From contig CALSOP010000003.1 in the NCBI GenBank assembly GCA_943788005.1, positions 68,690 to 132,689 on the forward strand: a stretch of 64,000 nucleotides of DNA. Direction: 5' to 3'. Numbering within the stretch: position 1 is the stretch's first letter; each line of letters begins with the position of its first letter. Made by a program: the position numbers and the translations under genes. Below are positions 6,230 to 37,486 of the stretch, one piece after another. The notes below the pieces were generated by a model. That model saw nothing but the letters and a program-made list of their open reading frames with translations, was not told where the DNA came from and made no database searches. Origin of the DNA: an uncultured Gammaproteobacteria bacterium. GTDB lineage: Bacteria; Pseudomonadota; Gammaproteobacteria; Eutrophobiales; Eutrophobiaceae.

Positions 6230-6898
6230 TTACTCCTCAACCCTTACAAGTTCATCTTTAATTTTCTTAAGTATTGAAATATAGTTTTCAACACCTTGTG
6301 CACCGGTCACAAGATGCTGCTGATTTATGACCATGGCGGGTACACCGCTAATGCCTCGGTCAATCCAAGATTTTTCTTCATCCCTAATGTCTTTTGCGAA
6401 ACGGCCGTCCTCTAAAATTTCTGATGCTTCTTCTGGATTAAGCCCAATATTTCCAGCAGATACGGCTAAGACACCTGGATTGCCAACATGAAGTCGACGA
6501 GTAAAAAACGCATTAAACAACTCCATTTTAAGCTCGTGCTGCATCCCTTTCGTAGCCGCCCAATGTAACAATTGATGAGCCAGAAATGTATTGTACATGC
6601 GCATGTCATCGGCATAATTAAATTCGAACCCAAGCTCTGCTCCCAGCGCTGTAATACGCGCACGAGCCTCCACGCTCCCTTCACTAGTTGTTCCATATTT
6701 TGCTGCGGTATGTTCACGGAGATTTTCTCCTTGTGAATCCATCTGCGGATTGAGTTCAAATGGATGCCAAATGATATTCGCCGTCAAGTCAGTCGCAAGA
6801 AGCGCCTTTTCTAGTTGTTTGAAACCAATAATACACCATGGACATACAACATCAGATACGATGTCAAAGCGAATTGATTGTTTAGGAATGATCGTCAT
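6230..6898 (-). CDS. DsbA-family thiol oxidoreductase (FrnE / 2-hydroxychromene-2-carboxylate isomerase-like)
   Basis: N-terminal thioredoxin-fold active site FDIVSDVVCPWCIIG and C-terminal GVPAMVINQQHLVTGAQ. Confidence 0.75.
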   Translation of the reverse strand: MTIIPKQSIRFDIVSDVVCPWCIIGFKQLEKALLATDLTANIIWHPFELNPQMDSQGENLREHTAAKYGTTSEGSVEARARITALGAELGFEFNYADDMRMYNTFLAHQLLHWAATKGMQHELKMELFNAFFTRRLHVGNPGVLAVSAGNIGLNPEEASEILEDGRFAKDIRDEEKSWIDRGISGVPAMVINQQHLVTGAQGVENYISILKKIKDELVRVEE

Positions 6899-7000
6899 TC
6901 TCTCTTAACTTCCGATTTTTGTCGGCTGCGGTCGTTGCATTCTGAGGTCAATACCCTTTTTTTCCATTTCGGATATTCATCCATAATACCTTTAAACTAA

Positions 7001-8404
7001 CTACAAATTATATTTTTTGATACGGTAACGTAATGCCATACGAGTAATACCGAGTTCTCGTGAGGCTTTAGAGACATTTCGGTTTGTTCGCTCTAATGCT
7101 TGCTTGATCAAATGTAATTCTGCTTCACCTAAGGTCAGATCTTCGTTCATTTCATTTTCACTTGCTTTTACACTTTCCTTTTTATCAAGACCAAGAATAT
7201 CGGCATCGAGCAAGCCGCTGCCATTTAACAAAACAGCGCGTTCGATTAAATGCTTCATCTCACGCACATTACCTGGCCAAGCATAGTCTTGTAATACATC
7301 ACTGGCCTCATCAGTAAAACCTTCAAACTCTAAACCATAACGTCTCGAAGTTTGTGCAGCAAAATGATTGGCTAATAACAAGATATCATCATCTCGCTCT
7401 CTCAATGCTGGCATGGAAAGAGAGATAACATTTAATCGGTAGTATAGATCCTGTCGGAACTCACCTTTCTCCGCGAGCGTTTCAATGTCACGGTTTGTTG
7501 CTGCAATAATCCAAGCAGCAACGGGACGTTCCTGTGTTGTTCCTACCTTACGTAAGGTTCGCCTTTCGAGAACTGCTAATAATTTTGATTGCAGATCTAG
7601 TGGCAATTCACCAATTTCATCAAGGAATAACACGCCATCTTCTGCAGCTTCGATTAAACCGGTGCGAGCTACATGCGCATTGGTGAACGCACCCTTTTCA
7701 TGCCCAAACAATTCTGACTCAATCAGATCTTTTGGTAATGAAGCGCAATCAACGTGTACAAATGGTTTTTCATATCGAGAACTGGTCGCATGCAATAGGC
7801 GAGCAACAACATCTTTGCCTGCTCCAGTCTCGCCCAATATGAGCACCGTTGGTGGAATAATCGAACCAGATTGAGATAATTTTGATATCCGTTCAACCTG
7901 CCCACGCACATCATTAATTTTTTTACATTCACCTAAAAACTCAACAGTTTCAGTAGCATGTTGTTCGCGTTTTACAGAGTATGTTAATTTTTGCGTTAAT
8001 TCATTCTTATCGAATACTTTTTCTACATTAAGTAGTAGCTCATCTAAATCGATTGGTTTTTTTAAATAATCTGAAGCCCCTAATTTCATTGCTGAGACAG
8101 CATCTTCTAATTCACCGTAGGCAGACATAACGAGCACGGCAATATTAGCATTTGATGATTTAACTTCTGTAAGTAGATCTAGACCGGAACCATCTGGTAA
8201 ACGCATATCGAGTAGAATCAGATCAGGTGCATGCTCATTAAATTCTCTTCTCGCAATTTCCAGATCGCCCGCTAAAAATACTTTATAGCCAGCACGCTCT
8301 AAATGTTTTTTCACAGCCTTTGCAAAAACCGCTTCGTCTTCTACCAATAAGATCTTTTTTTCCAAGACAGGGACTTCAGCAGATGTAATCAATGGTTCAC
8401 TCAC
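7001..8404 (-). CDS. sigma-54-dependent response regulator (NtrC family: REC + AAA+ + Fis-type HTH)
   Basis: REC domain (ILLVEDE…DLILLDMRLPDGSG), Walker A GETGAGKD, the sigma-54 contact motif ESELFGHEKGAFTNA, and a C-terminal HTH NVSKASRELGITRMALRYRIKKY. Overlaps the kinase gene by 8 nt. Confidence 0.9.
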   Translation of the reverse strand: MSEPLITSAEVPVLEKKILLVEDEAVFAKAVKKHLERAGYKVFLAGDLEIARREFNEHAPDLILLDMRLPDGSGLDLLTEVKSSNANIAVLVMSAYGELEDAVSAMKLGASDYLKKPIDLDELLLNVEKVFDKNELTQKLTYSVKREQHATETVEFLGECKKINDVRGQVERISKLSQSGSIIPPTVLILGETGAGKDVVARLLHATSSRYEKPFVHVDCASLPKDLIESELFGHEKGAFTNAHVARTGLIEAAEDGVLFLDEIGELPLDLQSKLLAVLERRTLRKVGTTQERPVAAWIIAATNRDIETLAEKGEFRQDLYYRLNVISLSMPALRERDDDILLLANHFAAQTSRRYGLEFEGFTDEASDVLQDYAWPGNVREMKHLIERAVLLNGSGLLDADILGLDKKESVKASENEMNEDLTLGEAELHLIKQALERTNRNVSKASRELGITRMALRYRIKKYNL

Positions 8405-9941
8405 TAGTGCCTACCTCGCTTAAACTATGTATGGGTGCAGCAATTATCACTTCGGTTCCTCGTTCTTCTATGACATTAAACCTTAAATTCCAGCCGTGCT
8501 TTTGACAGATCTTAAATGCAATGGGTATCCCTAAACCAGTACCAAACCGTTTTGTTGATGGTCCAGGTTCAAAATTGCTCGGCTTAGGTTCAAACGGTAA
8601 ACCAGGCCCGCTGTCCAAAATATGAATTTCGATATAATCTTCGGCATGTGAAAGACTTATCTTAATTTCACCTGACACTGGAGAGGCATCTACTGCATTC
8701 GCTAATAATGTGTATAAGGCTTGTTCCATCAAATCCGGATCAACTTTTAATTCTTGTGAAATTTCCCAACCCGTTTTTATAACCTCGATTTTCTTTTCCA
8801 TTATTTTATTAACTAGCAAGCCTAATGCTGCATCTACGAGGTCAGATGCCTTTGCTTCAATTAAGTTTGGTTTCAATGGATGCAGATAAGAGACTAATGA
8901 ACTGACCCAACGACCTAATCGATCAATCGTTTCAATAATTGCCTCTTTAGATTCATCTATCTCTTCCTGATTTTCAGCATGTTCTAGCAATTGCGCTGTG
9001 GCTCTAATGCTAGCGAGTGGATTTCGAATATTGTGTGCAACAACAGGGACCAACGCGCCTAATGCCGCTTGCCTTTCATTTTCAATTAATGCATTTCTAT
9101 TCTCAGCCAGTTCTACCGCCATCTTGTTTATAGCTTTGGCCAGATCAGATACTTCTTCTACGCCCTCTTCTTTTATATGGTATTCGAGATTGCCATGACT
9201 AATCTCTCCTGCGCCACGCATGACATTAGCTATCGGCTTAATAAACCCCTTACGCATCACCTGCCTGGTATATATAACAATAATAAATGCGATGATTAAT
9301 GGTATCGGAATGATAAACGGTGCGAATTTAGTCCACACCGCTAATGTCTCACCTAGTTTTTTATGTTTGTCCGTCAATAATTCTTTAAAGGCGCTATATC
9401 TATTTTCAAACTTACCTACCATCTGTTGGGCGAAGGCTGGGTTTAGGATTTGAATTCTTGCAAACTGATCTGCGACGTATGGATTATCAAAAATATTATT
9501 CATATCACGTTGGATTTCACGATATGACAGATTCATCGCTTGAATGGCATTGTCAGTTTCTCTGGATCTAGAGTTTTGCCTCAATTCATTAAAACGCTCG
9601 GAGATACTACGAGAATATTCGGGATAGGCTTCAAATGCGCGAGAATCTTCTAAAACGCGAGCACGTATCATCTCCTGAATTTGGGCATATAGTTCACCTC
9701 TAATCTGTTCTGTAAGATAAAACATGGAGTTAATACGTACCGATTCTGCAGAGTTTTGATGCCAGAAAGAGGCTGACAGTCCACCTAACAAACCGGTCAC
9801 CGCAACCAGAAATAGAATTGCTACTTCGTGTATAAATAATAGTTTTTTTAAAGACTTAGGTCTGCTGAATGCCATCGTTGGAGTATAACTTATAATGGTT
9901 CTTTTCAACCAGAAAATTGGATAATAATAGCCAAAAACCAC
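8397..9941 (-). CDS. membrane sensor histidine kinase (periplasmic sensor, HAMP, HisKA, HATPase)
   Basis: Two TM segments, an H-box VAHNIRNPLASI, and G-boxes DSGPGLP / GTGLGIPI. The real start is possibly the internal Met (MAFSRPKSL) at 9875. Confidence 0.85.
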   Translation of the reverse strand: MVFGYYYPIFWLKRTIISYTPTMAFSRPKSLKKLLFIHEVAILFLVAVTGLLGGLSASFWHQNSAESVRINSMFYLTEQIRGELYAQIQEMIRARVLEDSRAFEAYPEYSRSISERFNELRQNSRSRETDNAIQAMNLSYREIQRDMNNIFDNPYVADQFARIQILNPAFAQQMVGKFENRYSAFKELLTDKHKKLGETLAVWTKFAPFIIPIPLIIAFIIVIYTRQVMRKGFIKPIANVMRGAGEISHGNLEYHIKEEGVEEVSDLAKAINKMAVELAENRNALIENERQAALGALVPVVAHNIRNPLASIRATAQLLEHAENQEEIDESKEAIIETIDRLGRWVSSLVSYLHPLKPNLIEAKASDLVDAALGLLVNKIMEKKIEVIKTGWEISQELKVDPDLMEQALYTLLANAVDASPVSGEIKISLSHAEDYIEIHILDSGPGLPFEPKPSNFEPGPSTKRFGTGLGIPIAFKICQKHGWNLRFNVIEERGTEVIIAAPIHSLSEVGTSE

Positions 9942-10300: not shown

Positions 10301-10831
10301 TTATGAAAACCACATCCTCTTAAACAATTCGGTTTCCTTCCTTTTCATGTGATACACCACACCTGCTATATGCATGACTAACAATACGACTAGACATATA
10401 GCGCTAATTTCATGTATCAGGGTAAACAATTCATTCATTTCCGGATTTTTATCAGCCCACCTTGGAAGCGGGATACCCCAGAATTTCGTATTGTACTTGG
10501 TAAATGAAGATGAGATATAACCTGAAACAGGTTGTATAAACATCATTAAATATAATAAATGATGAGTTGCTTTTGCCATTTTTTGATGTGTTGCTGACAC
10601 AATATCTGGCAAAGGTGGTGATGTTGAGATGAGTTTCCAAATCAGTCTGACAATAGCTAATAATGCCAACGTCAAACCAAGTGATTTATGCAGGGTAAAA
10701 AACCAGGTGCGTTCTTCTGAGCCTTTAGGCAAATCAGACATATAAACACCCATACAAATCATGGCAATGATCATAATAGCCATAAGCCAATGGATTATTA
10801 TGGCCGTAGTACTGTAACGCTGAATTTCCAT
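10301..10831 (-). CDS. cytochrome b561 family protein (CybB/YceJ-like)
   Basis: 176 aa with four TM helices and conserved His ligands (IIHWLMA…, TLHKSLG, ATHHLLY, LIHEISA). Confidence 0.8.
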   Translation of the reverse strand: MEIQRYSTTAIIIHWLMAIMIIAMICMGVYMSDLPKGSEERTWFFTLHKSLGLTLALLAIVRLIWKLISTSPPLPDIVSATHQKMAKATHHLLYLMMFIQPVSGYISSSFTKYNTKFWGIPLPRWADKNPEMNELFTLIHEISAICLVVLLVMHIAGVVYHMKRKETELFKRMWFS

Positions 10832-11015: not shown

Positions 11016-11576
11016 ATGCGCCATTATCTTATCCTCACTTTATTATTCATACTCAGTTTCTCTGTAATGACTTCGGCGTCTGCTAATGAGTATCAATTAT
11101 TAGTATCAAAGAAAAATAATGAGCTTATTGTTGAAAAATCTGGACAGATAGTAAAAAAATATCATATTGCTAGTGGCAAAGGCGGTAAGGGAACCAAGCG
11201 TTTGCGTGGTGACAGTAAAACCCCTTTAGGTAGATATAGAGTAGCTAGTGTAAAAGAAAGCAGCCGCTTTCATTTCTTCATCCAGTTAGATTACCCAAAC
11301 TTGATAGATGCCTGGTACGGTTACAAAAATGAAATTATTGATGCAAATAATTTTAAACGTATAGCTACTGCATACAAAAAGCGTGAAGCGCCCCCACAAG
11401 ATACTGAATTAGGCGGCTTCATTGGGATACATGGCTTGGGTATTACTAATGAAGAAAAATTAAACATTCATGAGTCTTTCAATTGGACTGAAGGCTGTAT
11501 TGCTTTAACCAATGAAGAAATAAATGAACTGAAAAACTTTATCGCCATTGGCACACAAGTCATCATTAGAGAATAA
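11016..11576 (+). CDS. L,D-transpeptidase (YkuD-fold) family protein, secreted
   Basis: Signal peptide and the catalytic motif IGIHG…FNWTEGCIALTNEEINEL (His…Cys of YkuD domains). Confidence 0.8.
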   Translation: MRHYLILTLLFILSFSVMTSASANEYQLLVSKKNNELIVEKSGQIVKKYHIASGKGGKGTKRLRGDSKTPLGRYRVASVKESSRFHFFIQLDYPNLIDAWYGYKNEIIDANNFKRIATAYKKREAPPQDTELGGFIGIHGLGITNEEKLNIHESFNWTEGCIALTNEEINELKNFIAIGTQVIIRE

Positions 11577-11670
11577 GCAACCGGTGCTCAATAAATATCA
11601 ATCATGTCTATTCGCTAACCTTTTTGCCATACAAAAGTTATTGTTTCGCATAGCATTTGGCAAACTGTCA

Positions 11671-12132
11671 ATGCAAGTTATTAGCCTGTGCTTACTTGTA
11701 TTTCTACTGGGCTGTACAAATGAGACGGATCAGCTTTATGAAGAAACAACACAAAAATCTTTTGCGAATGTTGTTCAGGACGCTGAATTCGCCATCACCG
11801 AAAACAATTTTCGCATCACAAATCGACTGCATATAGGTAGTGCTATTAAAAAACGTGGCAGCATCGATTTTCCGCAAAATGAGATCATATTATTTTGTAA
11901 TCTTACTATCGCTGAAGAAATGCTAAAGATTGAACCTCGCTATATTAATTATTGTCCATACAAGGTAACAATCACTGATTCTGATGGGTATATCACTATA
12001 GGGACACGTTTGTTACCGCTTAAGACAAGCAACCCAAAAATGGATAAAGTAGCTAAAAACCTTAATAAAATATTACGCTCAATGGTAGAATATGCCGCAT
12101 CTGAAGACCCATTTATTCTTGAACAAAATTAG
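11671..12132 (+). CDS. DUF302-like lipoprotein
   Basis: Start chosen at the internal ATG, giving the lipoprotein signal MQVISLCLLVFLLGC. The body (FAITENNFRI…EIILFCNLTIAEEMLKIEPRYINYCPYKVTI…) fits the DUF302 pattern from memory. The ORF track's longer 11548 start overlaps the upstream gene. Confidence 0.55.
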   Translation: MQVISLCLLVFLLGCTNETDQLYEETTQKSFANVVQDAEFAITENNFRITNRLHIGSAIKKRGSIDFPQNEIILFCNLTIAEEMLKIEPRYINYCPYKVTITDSDGYITIGTRLLPLKTSNPKMDKVAKNLNKILRSMVEYAASEDPFILEQN

Positions 12133-12150: not shown

Positions 12151-12897
12151 ATGAAAGAACATCCAGAACATAGTCTCTTACTTCGCTGGCTAATTTTAAC
12201 TGGCCTTATCGTATTTGCTTTAATTGTTGCCTGGAATGAAGGCATCATCTCCTCATTATTTAGCGTCGACCAAAGTAATATTTGTTGGGTAATTGCATTG
12301 GCATACCTGTTAGTCTCCCTGCATTGCGCGCGAAGAATTTATACGCTTTCATTACAAACAAATTTATCTATCGAAGTTGATGGCATTATTAAAAATGAAG
12401 ATAAGCTCGATTTAACGATAAATGACGAAGAAGTCATGATTAATTCAAAAATTAAGCTGCCCGATTGCTTCATGACAGAATATATTAGAGATCTACATTA
12501 CCGTTATAACAATAAAAACAATACCGAAGACTCCGGCGGCTCATCTACTGATTTAATTGATGTTTATGAATCTCGTTTAAAAGGCCCTCAAGAAATCGGC
12601 TGGTTTGTTTCCGATATGATGTTAAAACTAGGTCTACTCGGCACTATTATCGGTTTTATTTTTATGCTGGGTTCAGTTGCCAACATTGCTGATTTTGATG
12701 TCAGTGGTATGCAAAAGATATTGAAGCACATGAGTAATGGTATGGGCACTGCTCTATATACGACACTTGCGGGATTAACCTGTAGTATTTTGTCTGCCAC
12801 TCAATACCACATGCTAGATCGTCACGCAGATGAGCTTATTGAGTTAACTCGCCATCTAACTCAAGTCCATGTCATTCCAAAGATCACAGGGAACTAG
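12151..12897 (+). CDS. MotA/TolQ/ExbB-family proton-channel protein
   Basis: C-terminal channel signature KLGLLGTIIGFIFMLG … GMGTALYTTLAGLTCSILSA. Hydrophobic helices are arranged 2+2 around a ~90-aa loop, as in MotA. Confidence 0.8.
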   Translation: MKEHPEHSLLLRWLILTGLIVFALIVAWNEGIISSLFSVDQSNICWVIALAYLLVSLHCARRIYTLSLQTNLSIEVDGIIKNEDKLDLTINDEEVMINSKIKLPDCFMTEYIRDLHYRYNNKNNTEDSGGSSTDLIDVYESRLKGPQEIGWFVSDMMLKLGLLGTIIGFIFMLGSVANIADFDVSGMQKILKHMSNGMGTALYTTLAGLTCSILSATQYHMLDRHADELIELTRHLTQVHVIPKITGN

Positions 12898-12904
12898 TTA
12901 GAAG

Positions 12905-13498
12905 ATGAGCATTAAAGATCGTCTCCGCTCCGACCCGTTCACGGATCTGCTGTTTAATGCACTTCTAGGGTTTACGTTTTTGTTTCTGGTTGCCATCATG
13001 TTTATGAACCCGGAGGCAAAATCAGGCATTATTGACCCTAAGGCAGAATACATATTAACCATCACTTGGGAAGACAATAGCCCTGATGATGTCGACGTCT
13101 GGGTGGAAGACCCTGAAGGTCAGATACTCTGGTTTAGAACACCTGAAGCAGGATTATTACACCTAGATCGCGATGATCGAGGTCTGGTTAATGACACAAT
13201 CACCATCGCAGGAGAGGAAGTTCAAAACCCACTGAATCAGGAAGTGGTAACACTCCGAGGTGTTGTAAAAGGCGAATATATTGTCAACCTCCATTATTAT
13301 GCATCAGAAACTGGTACGCCTGTAGATGTAAATGTGAGGTTGGTCAAAGTAAATCCAAAATTGGAAGTTGTATATTATGGAACAGTGAACCTTGAAAAAA
13401 GAGGTGATGAAAAAACAGCTGTACGATTTAAGATTGGCGGTGATGGCGACGTATACGGCATAAACTTTCTGCCAAAATCTCTTGTTCAACTTGGTTAA
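12905..13498 (+). CDS. membrane-anchored protein with ExbD/TolR/MotB-like Asp-containing TM helix and an unassigned beta-rich periplasmic domain
   Basis: N-terminus SDPFTDLLFNALLGFTFLFLVAIMF mirrors the ExbD/TolR motif (P-[FL]-x-D-V-x-x-x-L-L). The rest (DVDVWVEDPEGQILWF…GEYIVNLHYY…PVDVNVRLV) looks like a beta-sandwich reminiscent of YfaP/DUF2135-type domains, judged from memory and unverified. Confidence 0.5.
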   Translation: MSIKDRLRSDPFTDLLFNALLGFTFLFLVAIMFMNPEAKSGIIDPKAEYILTITWEDNSPDDVDVWVEDPEGQILWFRTPEAGLLHLDRDDRGLVNDTITIAGEEVQNPLNQEVVTLRGVVKGEYIVNLHYYASETGTPVDVNVRLVKVNPKLEVVYYGTVNLEKRGDEKTAVRFKIGGDGDVYGINFLPKSLVQLG

Positions 13499-13524
13499 AA
13501 AATAATAACGTTGGAGAAATTATT

Positions 13525-14037
13525 GTGATATTGGGTATAACTGGCATTATTTCAGCCTATATTTTAATTGGCTTACTTCTACTGAGCATAAATCTTTATT
13601 CAAAATGGTCATGGAAAGTTAAGGCAGCGAGCATCATTATCACCTCTGCATTTTATGTAGTGACTTATTATTCATTTCCTCCATTACTTGGTTGGCCCAC
13701 AACTGAGAATTTACCCTCACAATTTCGATTGATCTCAGCACACGTAGAACAACCTAATAAGGAAACAGGGAAAGAAGGTTCTATCTATCTTTGGTTAGCC
13801 GAGATAGAAAATATGTCAAGCACATCCGCACCACGCGCCTATGAATTACAGTATTCAAATGAACTACATGAAAAAATCGTCAATGTTAAAGCCAAACTGG
13901 ATAAGGATATCGCGCAATTAGGTGAGTTTAAGGAGCCTGATGACACAATGAATCAAGTTGAAGAACAACGACGTGGTGTTAAATCAGTATATATTGAATT
14001 TTATGATTTACCTGACCCACTCTTTCCAGACAAGTAG
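13525..14037 (+). CDS. hypothetical 2-TM membrane protein
   Basis: GTG start with SD GGAG upstream. Two N-terminal hydrophobic helices, then a ~110-aa soluble domain. No family recognised. Tight spacing within the operon. Confidence 0.4.
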   Translation: MILGITGIISAYILIGLLLLSINLYSKWSWKVKAASIIITSAFYVVTYYSFPPLLGWPTTENLPSQFRLISAHVEQPNKETGKEGSIYLWLAEIENMSSTSAPRAYELQYSNELHEKIVNVKAKLDKDIAQLGEFKEPDDTMNQVEEQRRGVKSVYIEFYDLPDPLFPDK

Positions 14038-14051
14038 GAGGCATTGAATAA

Positions 14052-15554
14052 TTGAATAGAAACATTACGTCTCTATTATTCTTTTTAACATTATCGGCAT
14101 ATTCCGGATACGCATCTGCCTGGAATATATTAACCGATAACCTTGATGTCAGTTGCCAACAGTCTGATGTTGTTCTTAACTGCGCATATCGAACGCTATT
14201 ATCTGAGACAACCCCTGACATATCTGCAAATTCAAACGGAAACAATCTTCAAGTAACTAAAACGAGCCAACCCTCCGAAGCTAACAGCACAACCGCAATT
14301 TTATTTCTCGTTGATACAAGCGATCCTAACAGACAGAATGTTATCGAAAAAAATAAATCTCACATTAAAGAACTTTTAACTATAACCAATCCAGCTCATA
14401 AAATCGGACTGGCATCATTTGATAAGTCTGTACAGCTCTTATCTCCGATAGGGACTTCAAGGTTCTTATTCTCGAAGTCAATTAACACTTTACAAGCACA
14501 AGGTAAAACAACTGAACTATATCGCAACCTTATAAAAGCAATTGACCACCTCAGGTCCTTTGATGAGAATAGAAAATTAATTGTATTAATGTCTGATGGT
14601 CAAGCCGAAGATAAGGCTTACTTTCATACAGATGTCATCAAGGCTGCAAGAAAATACGGCGTGGTAATTAATTCTATAGGATATCCCAGATCAATTTCAT
14701 TATCCGTATCTTTACAGACAATCAGAAGACTGAGTGAAGAGACGGGTGGCAACTACTTTGAAACTGACATGAGCTATGAATTGCCATCTAATAAATTGAA
14801 ACCATTGGTTAACAATCTGGACAATGGTGGTAAATTTTCTGTTGCTTTAGATTCTCTATCCCAAGACAACCCGCTACCTAACAAAATAACGCTTTCATTC
14901 AAAAGTGCGTCCGGGGTGGAGAATATAAACGTACCAGTGAAAGTAAAAGCCACAACTAGATCTGTGCAGATGCAACCCAGCATCCCTGTCGCAGAAGTTC
15001 TGTCGTCTAACAAAGTAACTCTAGAGAATAATCCACCAATCCAAATAGTAACTAAACAAAATGACAATCAAGCAATCAACTTGTGGCTTTGGTATGGTCT
15101 TCCTTCTGCGTTCATCATTATAATTATATTTATTCTAATCACATTGTTTTTATTATGGAATCGACGTTCTGAAGCACCCACGGTTTCGGATAGTAATTAT
15201 AAGCCCTATGCTTATTTAATTGCTAATGATGGCACCAATACACGGTATCCTATAACACGTACAATTTGGCGAATTGGCAGAAGTAAAGACAATGAATTAA
15301 GCTTGAATGACACCTCATTCTCGAGGCGTCATGCCGAAATTCACAGAAACAATAATGGGTCGTTTGATATTATAGATATGAACTCGATGAACGGGGTATA
15401 CATCAATAATGAAAAAGTCGGTAAAACAGAACTCCATGAGGGCGATGTTATAGAGATCGGAGATGTCTTTCTAAATTTCACACAATTGCCTTCTGATCAC
15501 TCGCTTGAAGAATCAACCGTCATGCAAAAAACAAAAGTCCCAATCACACACTAA
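14052..15554 (+). CDS. bitopic signalling-type protein: signal peptide + periplasmic vWA domain + TM + cytoplasmic FHA domain
   Basis: Signal peptide …GYASA. vWA motifs ILFLVDTSDPN, GKTTELY and VLMSDGQAED. TM segment LWLWYGLPSAFIIIIIFILITLFLLW. FHA signature WRIGRSKDNELSLNDTSFSRRHAEI…NSMNGVYINNEKV. TTG start 10 nt after AGGAGG. Confidence 0.8.
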   Translation: MNRNITSLLFFLTLSAYSGYASAWNILTDNLDVSCQQSDVVLNCAYRTLLSETTPDISANSNGNNLQVTKTSQPSEANSTTAILFLVDTSDPNRQNVIEKNKSHIKELLTITNPAHKIGLASFDKSVQLLSPIGTSRFLFSKSINTLQAQGKTTELYRNLIKAIDHLRSFDENRKLIVLMSDGQAEDKAYFHTDVIKAARKYGVVINSIGYPRSISLSVSLQTIRRLSEETGGNYFETDMSYELPSNKLKPLVNNLDNGGKFSVALDSLSQDNPLPNKITLSFKSASGVENINVPVKVKATTRSVQMQPSIPVAEVLSSNKVTLENNPPIQIVTKQNDNQAINLWLWYGLPSAFIIIIIFILITLFLLWNRRSEAPTVSDSNYKPYAYLIANDGTNTRYPITRTIWRIGRSKDNELSLNDTSFSRRHAEIHRNNNGSFDIIDMNSMNGVYINNEKVGKTELHEGDVIEIGDVFLNFTQLPSDHSLEESTVMQKTKVPITH

Positions 15555-15562
15555 TTATTTAA

Positions 15563-16276
15563 TCAGACAATGGGACTTGTTAACTTAATATAATCATCAA
15601 TCAGCTCTGTCATGACTGATTCAACCAGCAATGGTTCATCCTGACCAAACCATTCTTGTTTGTTCTCAATAATTAACTTCGATATATTTTCTGCGGAAAC
15701 CTTCCCATTATCATTTTGACACTGCGCGGAAGCATTAACTAACAATGAAGTTGCTGCTCCCATTACTATTTCTTTATGTTTTTGTAATACGGCATCTTGT
15801 TCCACAACAATCTGATTTTGACTGTTCTGTTCAGGCTTAACTGTTTGAATAACAAAGGCTATTAATGTACTAAATTCATCAGGAACCGATATTCGACTAA
15901 CCACAGCCCAACGGTATAGATTAATAGGCAAAACTTCCCATTTATCATCTGAGTTGTCGGCATTTAAAACTAATAATAGTTTATTGTGAACACACTCCTG
16001 TGCATGCATCCATAATTCATCTATCTTCATTGAAACGTTATCATCAGGTTCTTTAGTATCTGGATTTATACCAAATAATAAGGGGATCCCTTCTTTCTGC
16101 AGCAACCATTTATCTTTACATATCCATTTTTCATATAACTTTTGTAATCTTAAGTGCTCTTCATCATAGATTTTTTTTTCACGTTCACCCATCGTCATTT
16201 CTATAGGAGCATTCGGTACTGATATTTCCTTATCAAGGCCAAATAATGATGTTTTAATTTTATTAATAATATTCAT
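15563..16276 (-). CDS. hypothetical protein
   Basis: 237-aa ORF with no recognisable motif. Lies 16 nt downstream of the DUF455 gene on the same strand. Confidence 0.4.
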   Translation of the reverse strand: MNIINKIKTSLFGLDKEISVPNAPIEMTMGEREKKIYDEEHLRLQKLYEKWICKDKWLLQKEGIPLLFGINPDTKEPDDNVSMKIDELWMHAQECVHNKLLLVLNADNSDDKWEVLPINLYRWAVVSRISVPDEFSTLIAFVIQTVKPEQNSQNQIVVEQDAVLQKHKEIVMGAATSLLVNASAQCQNDNGKVSAENISKLIIENKQEWFGQDEPLLVESVMTELIDDYIKLTSPIV

Positions 16277-36374: not shown

Positions 36375-37352
36375 CTACTCTTCATCTTCTGTCTTTGCAG
36401 CAGTTTTTTTGGCAACTTTTTTCTTTTTAGCTACCTTCTTTTTAGCTACTTTCTTTTTAGTCGTGTCTGCATCAGTAGAACCTGAATCAGCTTCTTCTAC
36501 TCCATCGGCACTCACCTCATCACTTTCAGCCTTCTTTGCTACTTTTTTCTTAGCTGCTTTTTTAGCGACTTTTGGCTTAACACTGGTTTCTTCAACAGCT
36601 TCTACAGGTGCGCCAGATTCATCAATTTCTATTAACTCATCACTATTTTCAGAGCCACCCAAATGCGCAACAGACTGGCGGCTATCAAGAATGGCATCAG
36701 CTATACCCTTGGCATACAGCGATATAGAACGAATAGCGTCATCATTCCCTGGGATTACATAATCAACACCTTTTAGGCTATTGTTACTATCGACAACACC
36801 CACTACAGGTATGCCAAGCTTTACAGCTTCACTGACAGCAATGTTTTCGTAGCCCACATCAATAATAAATATTGCGTCTGGGATGCCCTTCATATCTTTA
36901 ATACCCGATAAATTGGCTTCCAACTTTTCTAGCTCGCGCCTCAGCATGAGCTGTTCTTTTTTATTTATGCGTTCTAGACGGCCATCCGTTTGCATCGCTT
37001 CAATTTCTTTCAGTCGATTAATCGAGCCACGCACAGTCTTGAAGTTAGTTAATAAACCGCCCAACCAGCGACGATTGATATACGGCATACCGCAGCGTTT
37101 TGCTTCTTCAGCAACAATTGATTGTGCAGAACGTTTAGTACCGACAAATAATATCGTACCCTTTTTTGAAGCCATTTTACTGACGTAATTGACAGCTTCT
37201 TCGTATAAAGGGAGCGTTTTTTCCAGATTGATAATATGGATTTTATTGCGCTGACCAAATAAGTATGGTGCCATACTGGGGTTCCAGTATCGGGTTTGGT
37301 GGCCAAAATGAACACCAGCCTCCAGCATTTCACGCATGGTGACGTTAGACAT
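36375..37352 (-). CDS. rpsB: 30S ribosomal protein S2 with ~85-aa Lys/Ala/acidic C-terminal extension
   Basis: [20 protein letters not shown] and a canonical S2 core to about residue 240. This is followed by a low-complexity tail …[16 protein letters not shown]…[29 protein letters not shown]. Confidence 0.95.
36420..36464. repeat. 3 x 15-nt tandem repeat inside the rpsB tail (encodes KKVAK units)
   Basis: tttctttttagctac / cttctttttagctac / tttctttttagtcgt read directly from the plus strand. Confidence 0.7.
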
Positions 37353-37486
37353 GTTAAGTTCTCCTGTTTAGGGTTAAGCCTCCGCATTCCCCATATACCA
37401 ACCTGTCAAAATCTAATCCTGACAGGCACCCTATATATGGTTGAAGCATGCGTGTGACGGTTAATTAATGTATTTGCGAAAATCGC
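37353..37486 (-). promoter_or_regulatory. structured rpsB-tsf 5' leader (candidate S2 autoregulatory element)
   Basis: On the minus strand there are nested helices CCATATA…CCTGTCA-(12 nt)-TGACAGG…TATATGG (plus-strand 37391-37440), followed by SD AGGAG 7 nt before the ATG. Gammaproteobacterial rpsB leaders are known to be structured and S2-regulated. Confidence 0.4.

Follow-up and report, generated by a model that had tools for sequence, protein, structure and literature searches.

Ion-driven motors of the MotA/ExbB type, among them ExbB-ExbD, TolQ-TolR, MotA-MotB, GldL-GldM and ZorA-ZorB, are 5:2 complexes in which protonation of an aspartate drives the relative rotation of the two subunits. 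To our knowledge, just a handful of functional classes of such motors has been recognized, namely the flagellar, Ton, Tol, gliding/type IX secretion system (T9SS) and Zorya classes. The Tol and Ton systems (TolQ-TolR-TolA and ExbB-ExbD-TonB) share a gene order in which a channel protein is followed by a single-pass protein with an aspartate-bearing helix and then by a membrane-anchored periplasmic protein. The same order is seen in a set of genes that we describe here from a stretch of 64,000 nucleotides (hereafter the window) of contig CALSOP010000003.1 (GenBank assembly GCA_943788005.1), which comes from an uncultured marine gammaproteobacterium. Genes 1 to 3 of this set code for a channel protein (subunit A), a protein with an aspartate-bearing transmembrane (TM) helix and a periplasmic β-sandwich (subunit B) and a small protein with two TM helices (subunit C); they are followed by gene 4, which codes for a protein with vWA and FHA domains. 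We think it probable, if some way from certain, that genes 1 to 3 code for a membrane machine of three components that belongs to the MotA/ExbB/TolQ superfamily, is widespread and as yet unnamed, resembles Ton and Tol, is driven by the proton-motive force and acts in the periplasm.

A sequence-only reading of this DNA had singled out four tightly spaced open reading frames (ORFs) on one strand, and both their coordinates and the gaps between them (7, 26 and 14 nucleotides, in order, from the ORF listing) are exactly as it gave them. Each of the four genes is preceded by a purine-rich ribosome-binding site. Scans for promoters and terminators at the locus gave no more than shuffled sequence did, and hence the limits of the presumed operon are drawn from the spacing of the genes. 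The window has a G+C content of 35-42%, and near-identical contigs and metagenome-assembled genomes (MAGs) are labelled Gammaproteobacteria, Thiotrichaceae UBA7359 or ‘marine bacterium B5-7’. Other elements of that reading also hold: the channel signature of gene 1 is present in both of its parts (LGLLGTIIGF and GMGTALYTTLAGL), as is the Asp-helix motif of gene 2 (DPFTDLLFNALLGF), and the usual partners are indeed missing, in that no TonB, Tol or flagellar genes lie within ~10 kb in the near-identical contigs. The profile searches detailed below likewise support its placement of genes 1 and 2 as a stator-like pair outside TolQ/TolR, ExbB/ExbD and ZorA/ZorB. It had taken the system to be an undescribed one, and we too found no description of it in the family libraries or in the literature searched, whose coverage was incomplete; recent overviews of the relatives of MotAB refer to ‘proteins with unknown function’ but do not include these genes (PMC12505986). 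The proposal of an uncharacterized ion-driven envelope module thus survives as regards the uncharacterized module, but not as regards the quartet, since the unit is a triad to which the vWA-FHA protein has been added in one lineage.

The triad emerges from the distribution of the gene-2 family, which comprises 4,590 clusters at 90% identity when searched with a single query and 7,164 when searched with a profile, with 1,809 representative clusters at 50% identity. At least 575 species-level genomes hold a gene-2 relative, and the MAGs bearing the triad are gamma-, alpha- and deltaproteobacterial or belong to Nitrospirae. Gene neighbourhoods were counted in the best 80 loci of each of two scans, one bacterial and one of viral contigs in IMG/VR, rather than in all matches; the bacterial scan covers one genome per species, and its best 80 loci show 60-98% identity to gene 2. 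Genes 1 and 3 flank gene 2 in every one of these 80 bacterial loci, and the full A-B-C triad is found in the same order in 153 of the 154 bacterial and viral loci with room for it, the lone exception (L057) still showing a tblastn match to gene 1. The genes overlap or nearly abut, with median gaps over the triad loci of -1 nucleotide between A and B and 8 nucleotides between B and C. Recurrence of the identical order in more than 150 independent loci puts the arrangement far out of the reach of chance, and the conserved unit is genes 1 to 3, a large unnamed three-component family. No plasmid copy of the triad was found. Neither gene 2 nor gene 3 is covered by any family in Pfam, NCBIfam, PHROG or PADLOC. 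The fourth position, or that ahead of gene 1, is taken in a more distant clade of bacteria by a gene for a DUF3108-like lipoprotein. This protein of ~235 residues, which has an N-terminal YFPLxEGxxWxY motif and a weak Pfam match, takes the place of the vWA-FHA protein.

Subunit A provides the link to the known motors. Gene 1 matches the Pfam MotA_ExbB model (PF01618) with 39 bits against a cut-off of 22.9 (E 7.8e-10), and its phage and metagenome homologues likewise match PF01618. Hydropathy predicts four TM helices, with the N-terminus inside and a cytoplasmic insert of ~90 residues between TM2 and TM3. In a profile comparison with hhalign, a gene-1 profile built from 14 diverse homologues aligned with residues 133-206 of E. 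coli TolQ (probability 82%, E 1e-5), which places T165 of gene 1 opposite TolQ T145 and T205 opposite TolQ T178, residues of the ion pathway that face TolR D23. Both threonines are among the positions conserved at 95% or more across 148 bacterial and viral sequences of the family, the others being W13, D40, G161, G164, G168, M198, A201, L202, G208, L209 and Q218. The models of the individual classes score far lower: gene 1 reaches 12.6 bits against the cut-off of 221 for the NCBIfam tolQ equivalog TIGR02796 and at most 15.4 bits against the cut-offs of 100-500 for the NCBIfam ZorA models, and its match to the PADLOC ZorA profile is weak (E 1e-5). Judged from these profiles, gene 1 is a true member of the MotA/ExbB/TolQ superfamily without orthology to TolQ, ExbB or ZorA. 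In one representative of 411 residues (P0182), a gene-1-like MotA domain (19-230) is joined to a gene-2-like domain (272-408); this single case, on a high-GC contig, may be a natural A-B fusion, as it appears, or an artefact of a frameshift, of assembly or of gene calling.

Subunit B combines a short cytoplasmic N-terminus and a TM helix with a periplasmic β-sandwich of ~150 residues, which bears an acidic HLDRDDxG loop. Its AlphaFold2 (AF2) model, with a predicted local distance difference test score (pLDDT) of 82, has a helix at residues 11-33 and then 11 strands. D14 and 35 other residues are conserved at 95% or more among 150 bacterial and viral sequences; these include F12, L16, F17 and N18 in the helix and periplasmic clusters comprising W55, D62, D64, P70, H86-L-D-R-D-D91, G93 and D97. 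D14 lies at the N-terminal, cytoplasmic end of the TM helix, giving gene 2 the aspartate expected of the ExbD/TolR/MotB family, and the surrounding motif, PF.DLLFN..L, resembles PFIDVML of ExbD and PLLDVLL of TolR. The periplasmic part, in keeping with the sequence-only reading, is neither of the ExbD/TolR nor of the OmpA type: gene 2 has no Pfam match at E<=1, ExbD (PF02472) and OmpA being among the families not matched, and its profile comparison with TolR was negative. Instead, hhalign aligns it with E. coli YfaP over the DUF2135 part of the latter (probability 87%, E 3.9e-6), and some JGI records carry the DUF2135 name; the Pfam DUF2135 model itself gave no match at E<=1. A Foldseek search of the gene-2 model against the PDB returned nothing at E<=1e-3, this search and one against BFVD giving just generic β-sandwiches or noise, and sequence and profile searches of gene 2 against PDB chains yielded nothing beyond sub-threshold matches to jelly-rolls, namely the Ca2+-binding domain of subtilisin-like proteases. 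We describe the β-sandwich as putatively, and distantly, DUF2135/YfaP-like. Its HLDRDDxG loop resembles a Ca2+ site of the DxDxDG type, and the domain probably binds Ca2+. Separately, the best PDB match of the gene-2 profile (sub-threshold, E 0.04) is chain C of 11pb, a phage ‘virion structural protein’ in which a stretch of similar sequence occurs (DVDxxVxxPxG…DxG), and a jelly-roll motif of this type may also occur in virion proteins.

Subunit C begins with two TM helices, after which come a GWPT motif and a small α/β domain in the periplasm; a variable linker then leads to a conserved C-terminal motif. The linker is of low complexity, Gly/Glu/Lys-rich in phages and poorly predicted in the AF2 model (pLDDT 74). 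In the alignment, the C-terminal motif, YDLPDPLFPDK in the window, is YDLPxPxxPxK across the bacterial and phage homologues.

The triad is also common in viruses: at least 193 viral contigs in IMG/VR, many of them 100-527 kb long, hold a triad relative, and in the 78 viral loci with room for it, as read with hidden Markov models built from the three families, the triad stands in the same order without exception. IMG/VR may include some misassigned contigs. The loci are those of real phages, given that their flanks carry a T4-type large terminase, ClpP, a Toprim primase and hsp20, along with a GDP-mannose dehydratase, and on metagenomic contigs the distant members of the family likewise form the triad beside phage-like genes. 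Among cultured viruses, it occurs in T4-like and temperate Rhizobium and Sinorhizobium phages, in which all of its genes are annotated as hypothetical; in the temperate Sinorhizobium phage 16-3 the small unrelated ORFs p039 and p041 are interleaved in it, and its setting in the Rhizobium phages is a region of early or replication type. None of the proteins, phage copies included, belongs to a PHROGs family. With 113-190 residues, the phage A subunits are short and all but devoid of a cytoplasmic domain. In 22 of the 80 viral loci, the gene directly 3' of the triad codes for a GDP-mannose 4,6-dehydratase; this may reflect synteny within one phage group or hint at a link to the modification of surface polysaccharides.

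Gene 4 stands apart from the triad. It starts with TTG behind a strong AGGAGG ribosome-binding site, and its product has an N-terminal signal-like sequence, a VWA domain (residues 83-239, Pfam E 5.6e-10), a β-rich region, one TM helix at ~350-368 and an FHA domain (PF00498, residues 406-470, E 1.2e-20). Its 38 orthologues (30-78% identity) keep the residues D88-T89-S90, T153 and D182 of the metal-ion-dependent adhesion site (MIDAS), with Pro92 in place of the second serine, as well as C35 and C44 ahead of the vWA domain and basic residues past the TM helix. The same orthologues keep the FHA ligand residues GR…S.RH…NG, as would befit a domain that binds phosphothreonine (pThr). The signal-like N-terminus, the single TM helix, the two cysteines and the basic residues fit a vWA domain in the periplasm and an FHA domain in the cytoplasm, the same placement that had been proposed from the sequence. 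Where present, gene 4 is always directly 3' of gene 3. It follows the triad in approximately 33-38 of the 80 bacterial loci and in none of the 80 viral ones, and it is absent even from close relatives (L016, with 87% identity in gene 2, L038, L049 and L050), in which the operon stops at gene 3. Gene 4 is a lineage-specific accessory outside the conserved unit. In a near-identical contig (L001) the vWA-FHA gene is split into a vWA ORF of 373 residues and an FHA ORF of 82 residues, and a DUF455 gene is likewise split in two contigs; these may be assembly indels or cases of real pseudogenization.

By analogy with the solved relatives, subunit A would be an ion-conducting channel, assembled as a pentamer, into the pore of which B would insert its Asp-bearing TM helix in the manner of ExbD, TolR and MotB; on the same analogy, A and B would form a rotating motor of 5:2 stoichiometry. 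Ion flow via A and B would drive a movement that is delivered in the periplasm, and, because the phage A subunits have almost no cytoplasmic part, the output is not expected to be cytoplasmic in general. We posit that C plays a role like that of TolA or TonB, because its gene holds the corresponding position and the protein is anchored in the membrane, contains a linker of low complexity and ends in a conserved motif. The lineage of the window would have gained the vWA-TM-FHA protein, a DUF302 lipoprotein and a YkuD enzyme as envelope accessories, and gene 4 may dock on the motor via its TM helix and juxtamembrane FHA domain, displaying the vWA domain in the periplasm, comparable to GltG, an FHA-bearing protein predicted to dock on the AglR5QS motor (PMC11761067).

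Several observations weigh against this model. The hhalign comparison of gene 2 with E. coli TolR gave a probability of 1.3% and that of gene 3 with TolA one of 0.4%. The latter value, together with a Foldseek search of gene 3 against the PDB that gave no fold match beyond noise level and a PDB sequence search without a match, rules out gene 3 as a TolA or TonB homologue. As homology thus went undetected both between B and TolR and between C and TolA, the Ton/Tol analogy is one of architecture and gene order. The alignment of gene-3 homologues shows neither a conserved His nor an SHLS motif, no outer-membrane partner or target of the triad was identified, and the co-occurrence counts come from the best loci rather than from all matches. 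Further, the presence of the triad in lytic phages could point to a function in conflict or lysis instead of force transduction.

Other explanations have to be weighed against a Ton/Tol-like machine. The sequence-only reading favored a four-gene unit with the vWA-FHA protein as an integral adaptor, such that motor activity or the binding of an envelope ligand is read out by Ser/Thr phosphorylation. Gene 4 does lie 14 nucleotides 3' of the triad on the same strand, with its AGGAGG site and invariably right after gene 3 where it is present at all; its pThr-binding and most of its MIDAS residues are conserved, and GltG furnishes a precedent for the FHA domain. Yet its partial, exclusively bacterial presence, with its absence from more than half of the bacterial loci, close relatives included, and from all viral loci, means that phosphorylation cannot be the general output of the system and would be, at most, an accessory of one lineage. 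Moreover, a search of the window for Hanks-kinase motifs was negative, and the annotations of the near-identical contigs place no kinase or phosphatase close to the triad. As a candidate ligand of the FHA domain we considered T133 of the gene-1 cytoplasmic loop (STDLID, of the pT-x-x-I/L-like kind), which was rejected because this position is Thr in just 8 of the 38 loci with gene 4 (it is Ser in 18 of the 38). We regard a four-gene unit as unlikely. To a similar degree we doubt that the triad is a conflict system, that is, a Zorya-like anti-phage defense in bacteria and a means of envelope sabotage or superinfection exclusion in phages, with the channel as an envelope sensor or a membrane-depolarizing effector. 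The weak ZorA matches of gene 1, the abundance of the triad in large phages and its early or replication-type setting in Rhizobium phages speak for this; but gene 1 reaches no more than 15.4 bits with a ZorA model whose cut-off is 500, it lacks the long tail of ZorA and genes 2 to 4 match no PADLOC model, those of ZorB, ZorC and ZorD included, such that membership of Zorya is rejected, and the bacterial loci lie in stable housekeeping synteny with TilS, AccA, DnaE and YkuD, outside defense islands.

Less probable again is a gated ion channel devoid of mechanical output, for instance a proton leak that responds to Ca2+ or to envelope stress, or that times phage lysis. Metal binding, as suggested by the highly conserved acidic clusters of gene 2, and the minimal phage A subunits would suit such a channel, but on this view it would be hard to explain why C, with its linker and terminal docking motif, is so strictly kept, and all characterized MotA/ExbB-family complexes that we are aware of are energy transducers. 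We give hardly any credence to the notion that genes 1 and 2 are ordinary TolQ/TolR or ExbB/ExbD orthologues with a TolA or TonB partner encoded elsewhere. It has in its favor just the shared MotA_ExbB domain and the TM aspartate; it is refuted by the tolQ equivalog score (12.6 against 221 bits) and the TolR comparison, gene 2 has no ExbD match, gene 1 has four TM helices with its N-terminus inside, and the triad has a third gene of its own.

The surroundings of the triad are listed in Table 1. A YkuD-type L,D-transpeptidase-fold gene lies upstream on the same strand in 52 of the 80 bacterial loci, a linkage that may be just one of shared ancestry, and a DUF302 gene lies directly 5' of gene 1 in 40 of the 80. 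The DUF302 protein is probably a lipoprotein made from an internal ATG near 11671, a start that we infer from the lipobox MQVISLCLLVFLLGC read in the translation. The regulator, kinase and cytochrome b561-like group lies just 5' of the array of YkuD, DUF302 and triad genes, a layout conserved in many related loci. Two near-identical contigs carry an insertion sequence (IS) element with an HTH_Tnp_1 and rve transposase between the DsbA and response-regulator genes; its absence from a third (L002) and from the window (~6898-7001) marks it as a strain-level insertion polymorphism. Farther away, an Rfam t44 RNA scores just above its gathering score immediately upstream of an ORF and, by position alone, looks like the usual rpsB leader. 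The window as a whole yielded no tRNA gene.

Table 1. Coordinates of the triad, its accessory and other features. Positions refer to the window unless a locus (L number) is named.
Feature	Sequence	Position	Strand	Details
Gene 1 (subunit A)	Window	12151..12897	+	248 residues; MotA/ExbB/TolQ-superfamily channel, Pfam MotA_ExbB
Gene 2 (subunit B)	Window	12905..13498	+	197 residues; single TM helix with Asp14 and periplasmic β-sandwich
Gene 3 (subunit C)	Window	13525..14037	+	170 residues; two TM helices, C-terminal YDLPDPLFPDK
Gene 4 (lineage-specific accessory)	Window	14052..15554	+	500 residues; Pfam VWA and FHA
YkuD-type L,D-transpeptidase-fold gene	Window	11016..11576	+	Pfam YkuD, E 9e-19; upstream lineage-specific neighbor
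DUF302 gene	Window	11548..12132	+	Pfam DUF302, E 9e-10; upstream lineage-specific neighbor
ORF of 237 residues	Window	15563-16276	-	Convergent with gene 4; no Pfam or NCBIfam family; same position in 24 related loci
Sigma-54-type response regulator and HAMP histidine kinase pair with cytochrome b561-like gene	Window	7001-9941 and 10301-10831	-	Divergent
Rfam t44 RNA	Window	37373-37474	-	45.3 bits, gathering score 44
ORF downstream of t44 RNA	Window	36375-37352		
Triad of Rhizobium phage RHph_N34	L088	3459-4948		148, 200 and 144 residues; same in relatives P10VF, AF3 and RL38J1
Triad of phage RHph_N3_19	L089	3598-4974		113, 194 and 154 residues
Triad of temperate Sinorhizobium phage 16-3	L171	2223-4084		p038, p040, p042
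GDP-mannose 4,6-dehydratase (example)	L112	2701-3777		
DUF3108-like lipoprotein	L069	7136-7837		
DUF3108-like lipoprotein	L077	7082-7780		
DUF3108-like lipoprotein	L072	4379-5113		
Split vWA-FHA gene	L001	11148-12653		
Split DUF455 gene	L001 and L002	~13389-14186		
IS element	L001	2603-3960		
IS element	L003	2602-3959		

As to its wider meaning, we see an even chance that genes 1 to 3 define a major new branch among ion-driven motors of the MotA/ExbB type, which has a B (an Asp helix joined to a Ca2+-binding, DUF2135-like β-sandwich) and a C peculiar to it and is common to diderm bacteria and many large phages, such that phages encode their own envelope machine driven by the proton-motive force. 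The triad would then add a motor class, one in which neither of the two partner proteins belongs to a known fold family. Its occurrence in both lytic and temperate phages implies that a virus-encoded machine driven by the membrane potential may act during infection, and this machine would, if the proposal is true, serve some infection step such as envelope remodelling, superinfection exclusion or lysis control. As far as the searched libraries and literature show, a phage-encoded machine of this kind is undescribed. Sinorhizobium phage 16-3, with p038, p040 and p042, and the T4-like Rhizobium phages offer tractable systems, and the vWA-FHA, DUF302 and YkuD partners in the lineage of the window are handles on the target of the motor in the bacterial envelope.

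Finally, the described systems resemble the locus in different respects. The β-sandwich of B aligns with DUF2135 of YfaP and has in common with it a W…D.DL…P.G motif, also seen in the C-terminal jelly-roll domains of proteases; however, YfaP, which belongs to the α2-macroglobulin operon of E. coli, has no linked MotA-like gene and no Asp TM helix, and we know of no function for DUF2135. Zorya shares the combination of a MotA-like subunit and an Asp-helix partner, as well as the weak profile match of gene 1 to ZorA, but differs in the long ZorA tail, the peptidoglycan-binding ZorB domain and ZorC/D/E, none of which is seen here. A 2025 study in Mol Biol Evol described vWA ‘force transducers’ encoded beside tolQ-like motors, in which a linker joins an N-terminal SHLS helix or Asp transpore helix to a vWA domain at the C-terminus, and which replace or accompany TolR-like genes (PMC12204202). 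The present locus is alike in having a vWA protein of unknown function beside a non-canonical MotA/TolQ-like motor; in contrast, the vWA domain of gene 4 is N-terminal, past a signal peptide, with the TM helix C-terminal to it and then the FHA domain, and a separate Asp-helix protein is present in the form of gene 2. In the Agl-Glt gliding machinery of Myxococcus, a TolQR-like motor (AglRQS) is accompanied by GltG, an inner-membrane protein with FHA adjoining a TM helix, and by the vWA protein CglB as part of the same machine (PMC11761067); there, however, the FHA domains of GltG are N-terminal and its periplasmic end is TonB-C-like, the vWA domain is on a separate outer-membrane adhesin, and the other ~15 Glt proteins have no counterparts here. 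From the Tol and Ton systems the triad differs in that A fails the TolQ model, B has a DUF2135-like β-sandwich in place of the ExbD/TolR fold, C has two TM helices, no SHLS/His motif and neither a TonB-C nor a TolA-III domain, and genes for Pal, TolB or a TonB-dependent receptor are not linked to the triad. Nevertheless, with the same gene order, conserved channel threonines that align with TolQ T145 and T178, and an output expected in the periplasm, Tol and Ton are its closest working analogues.

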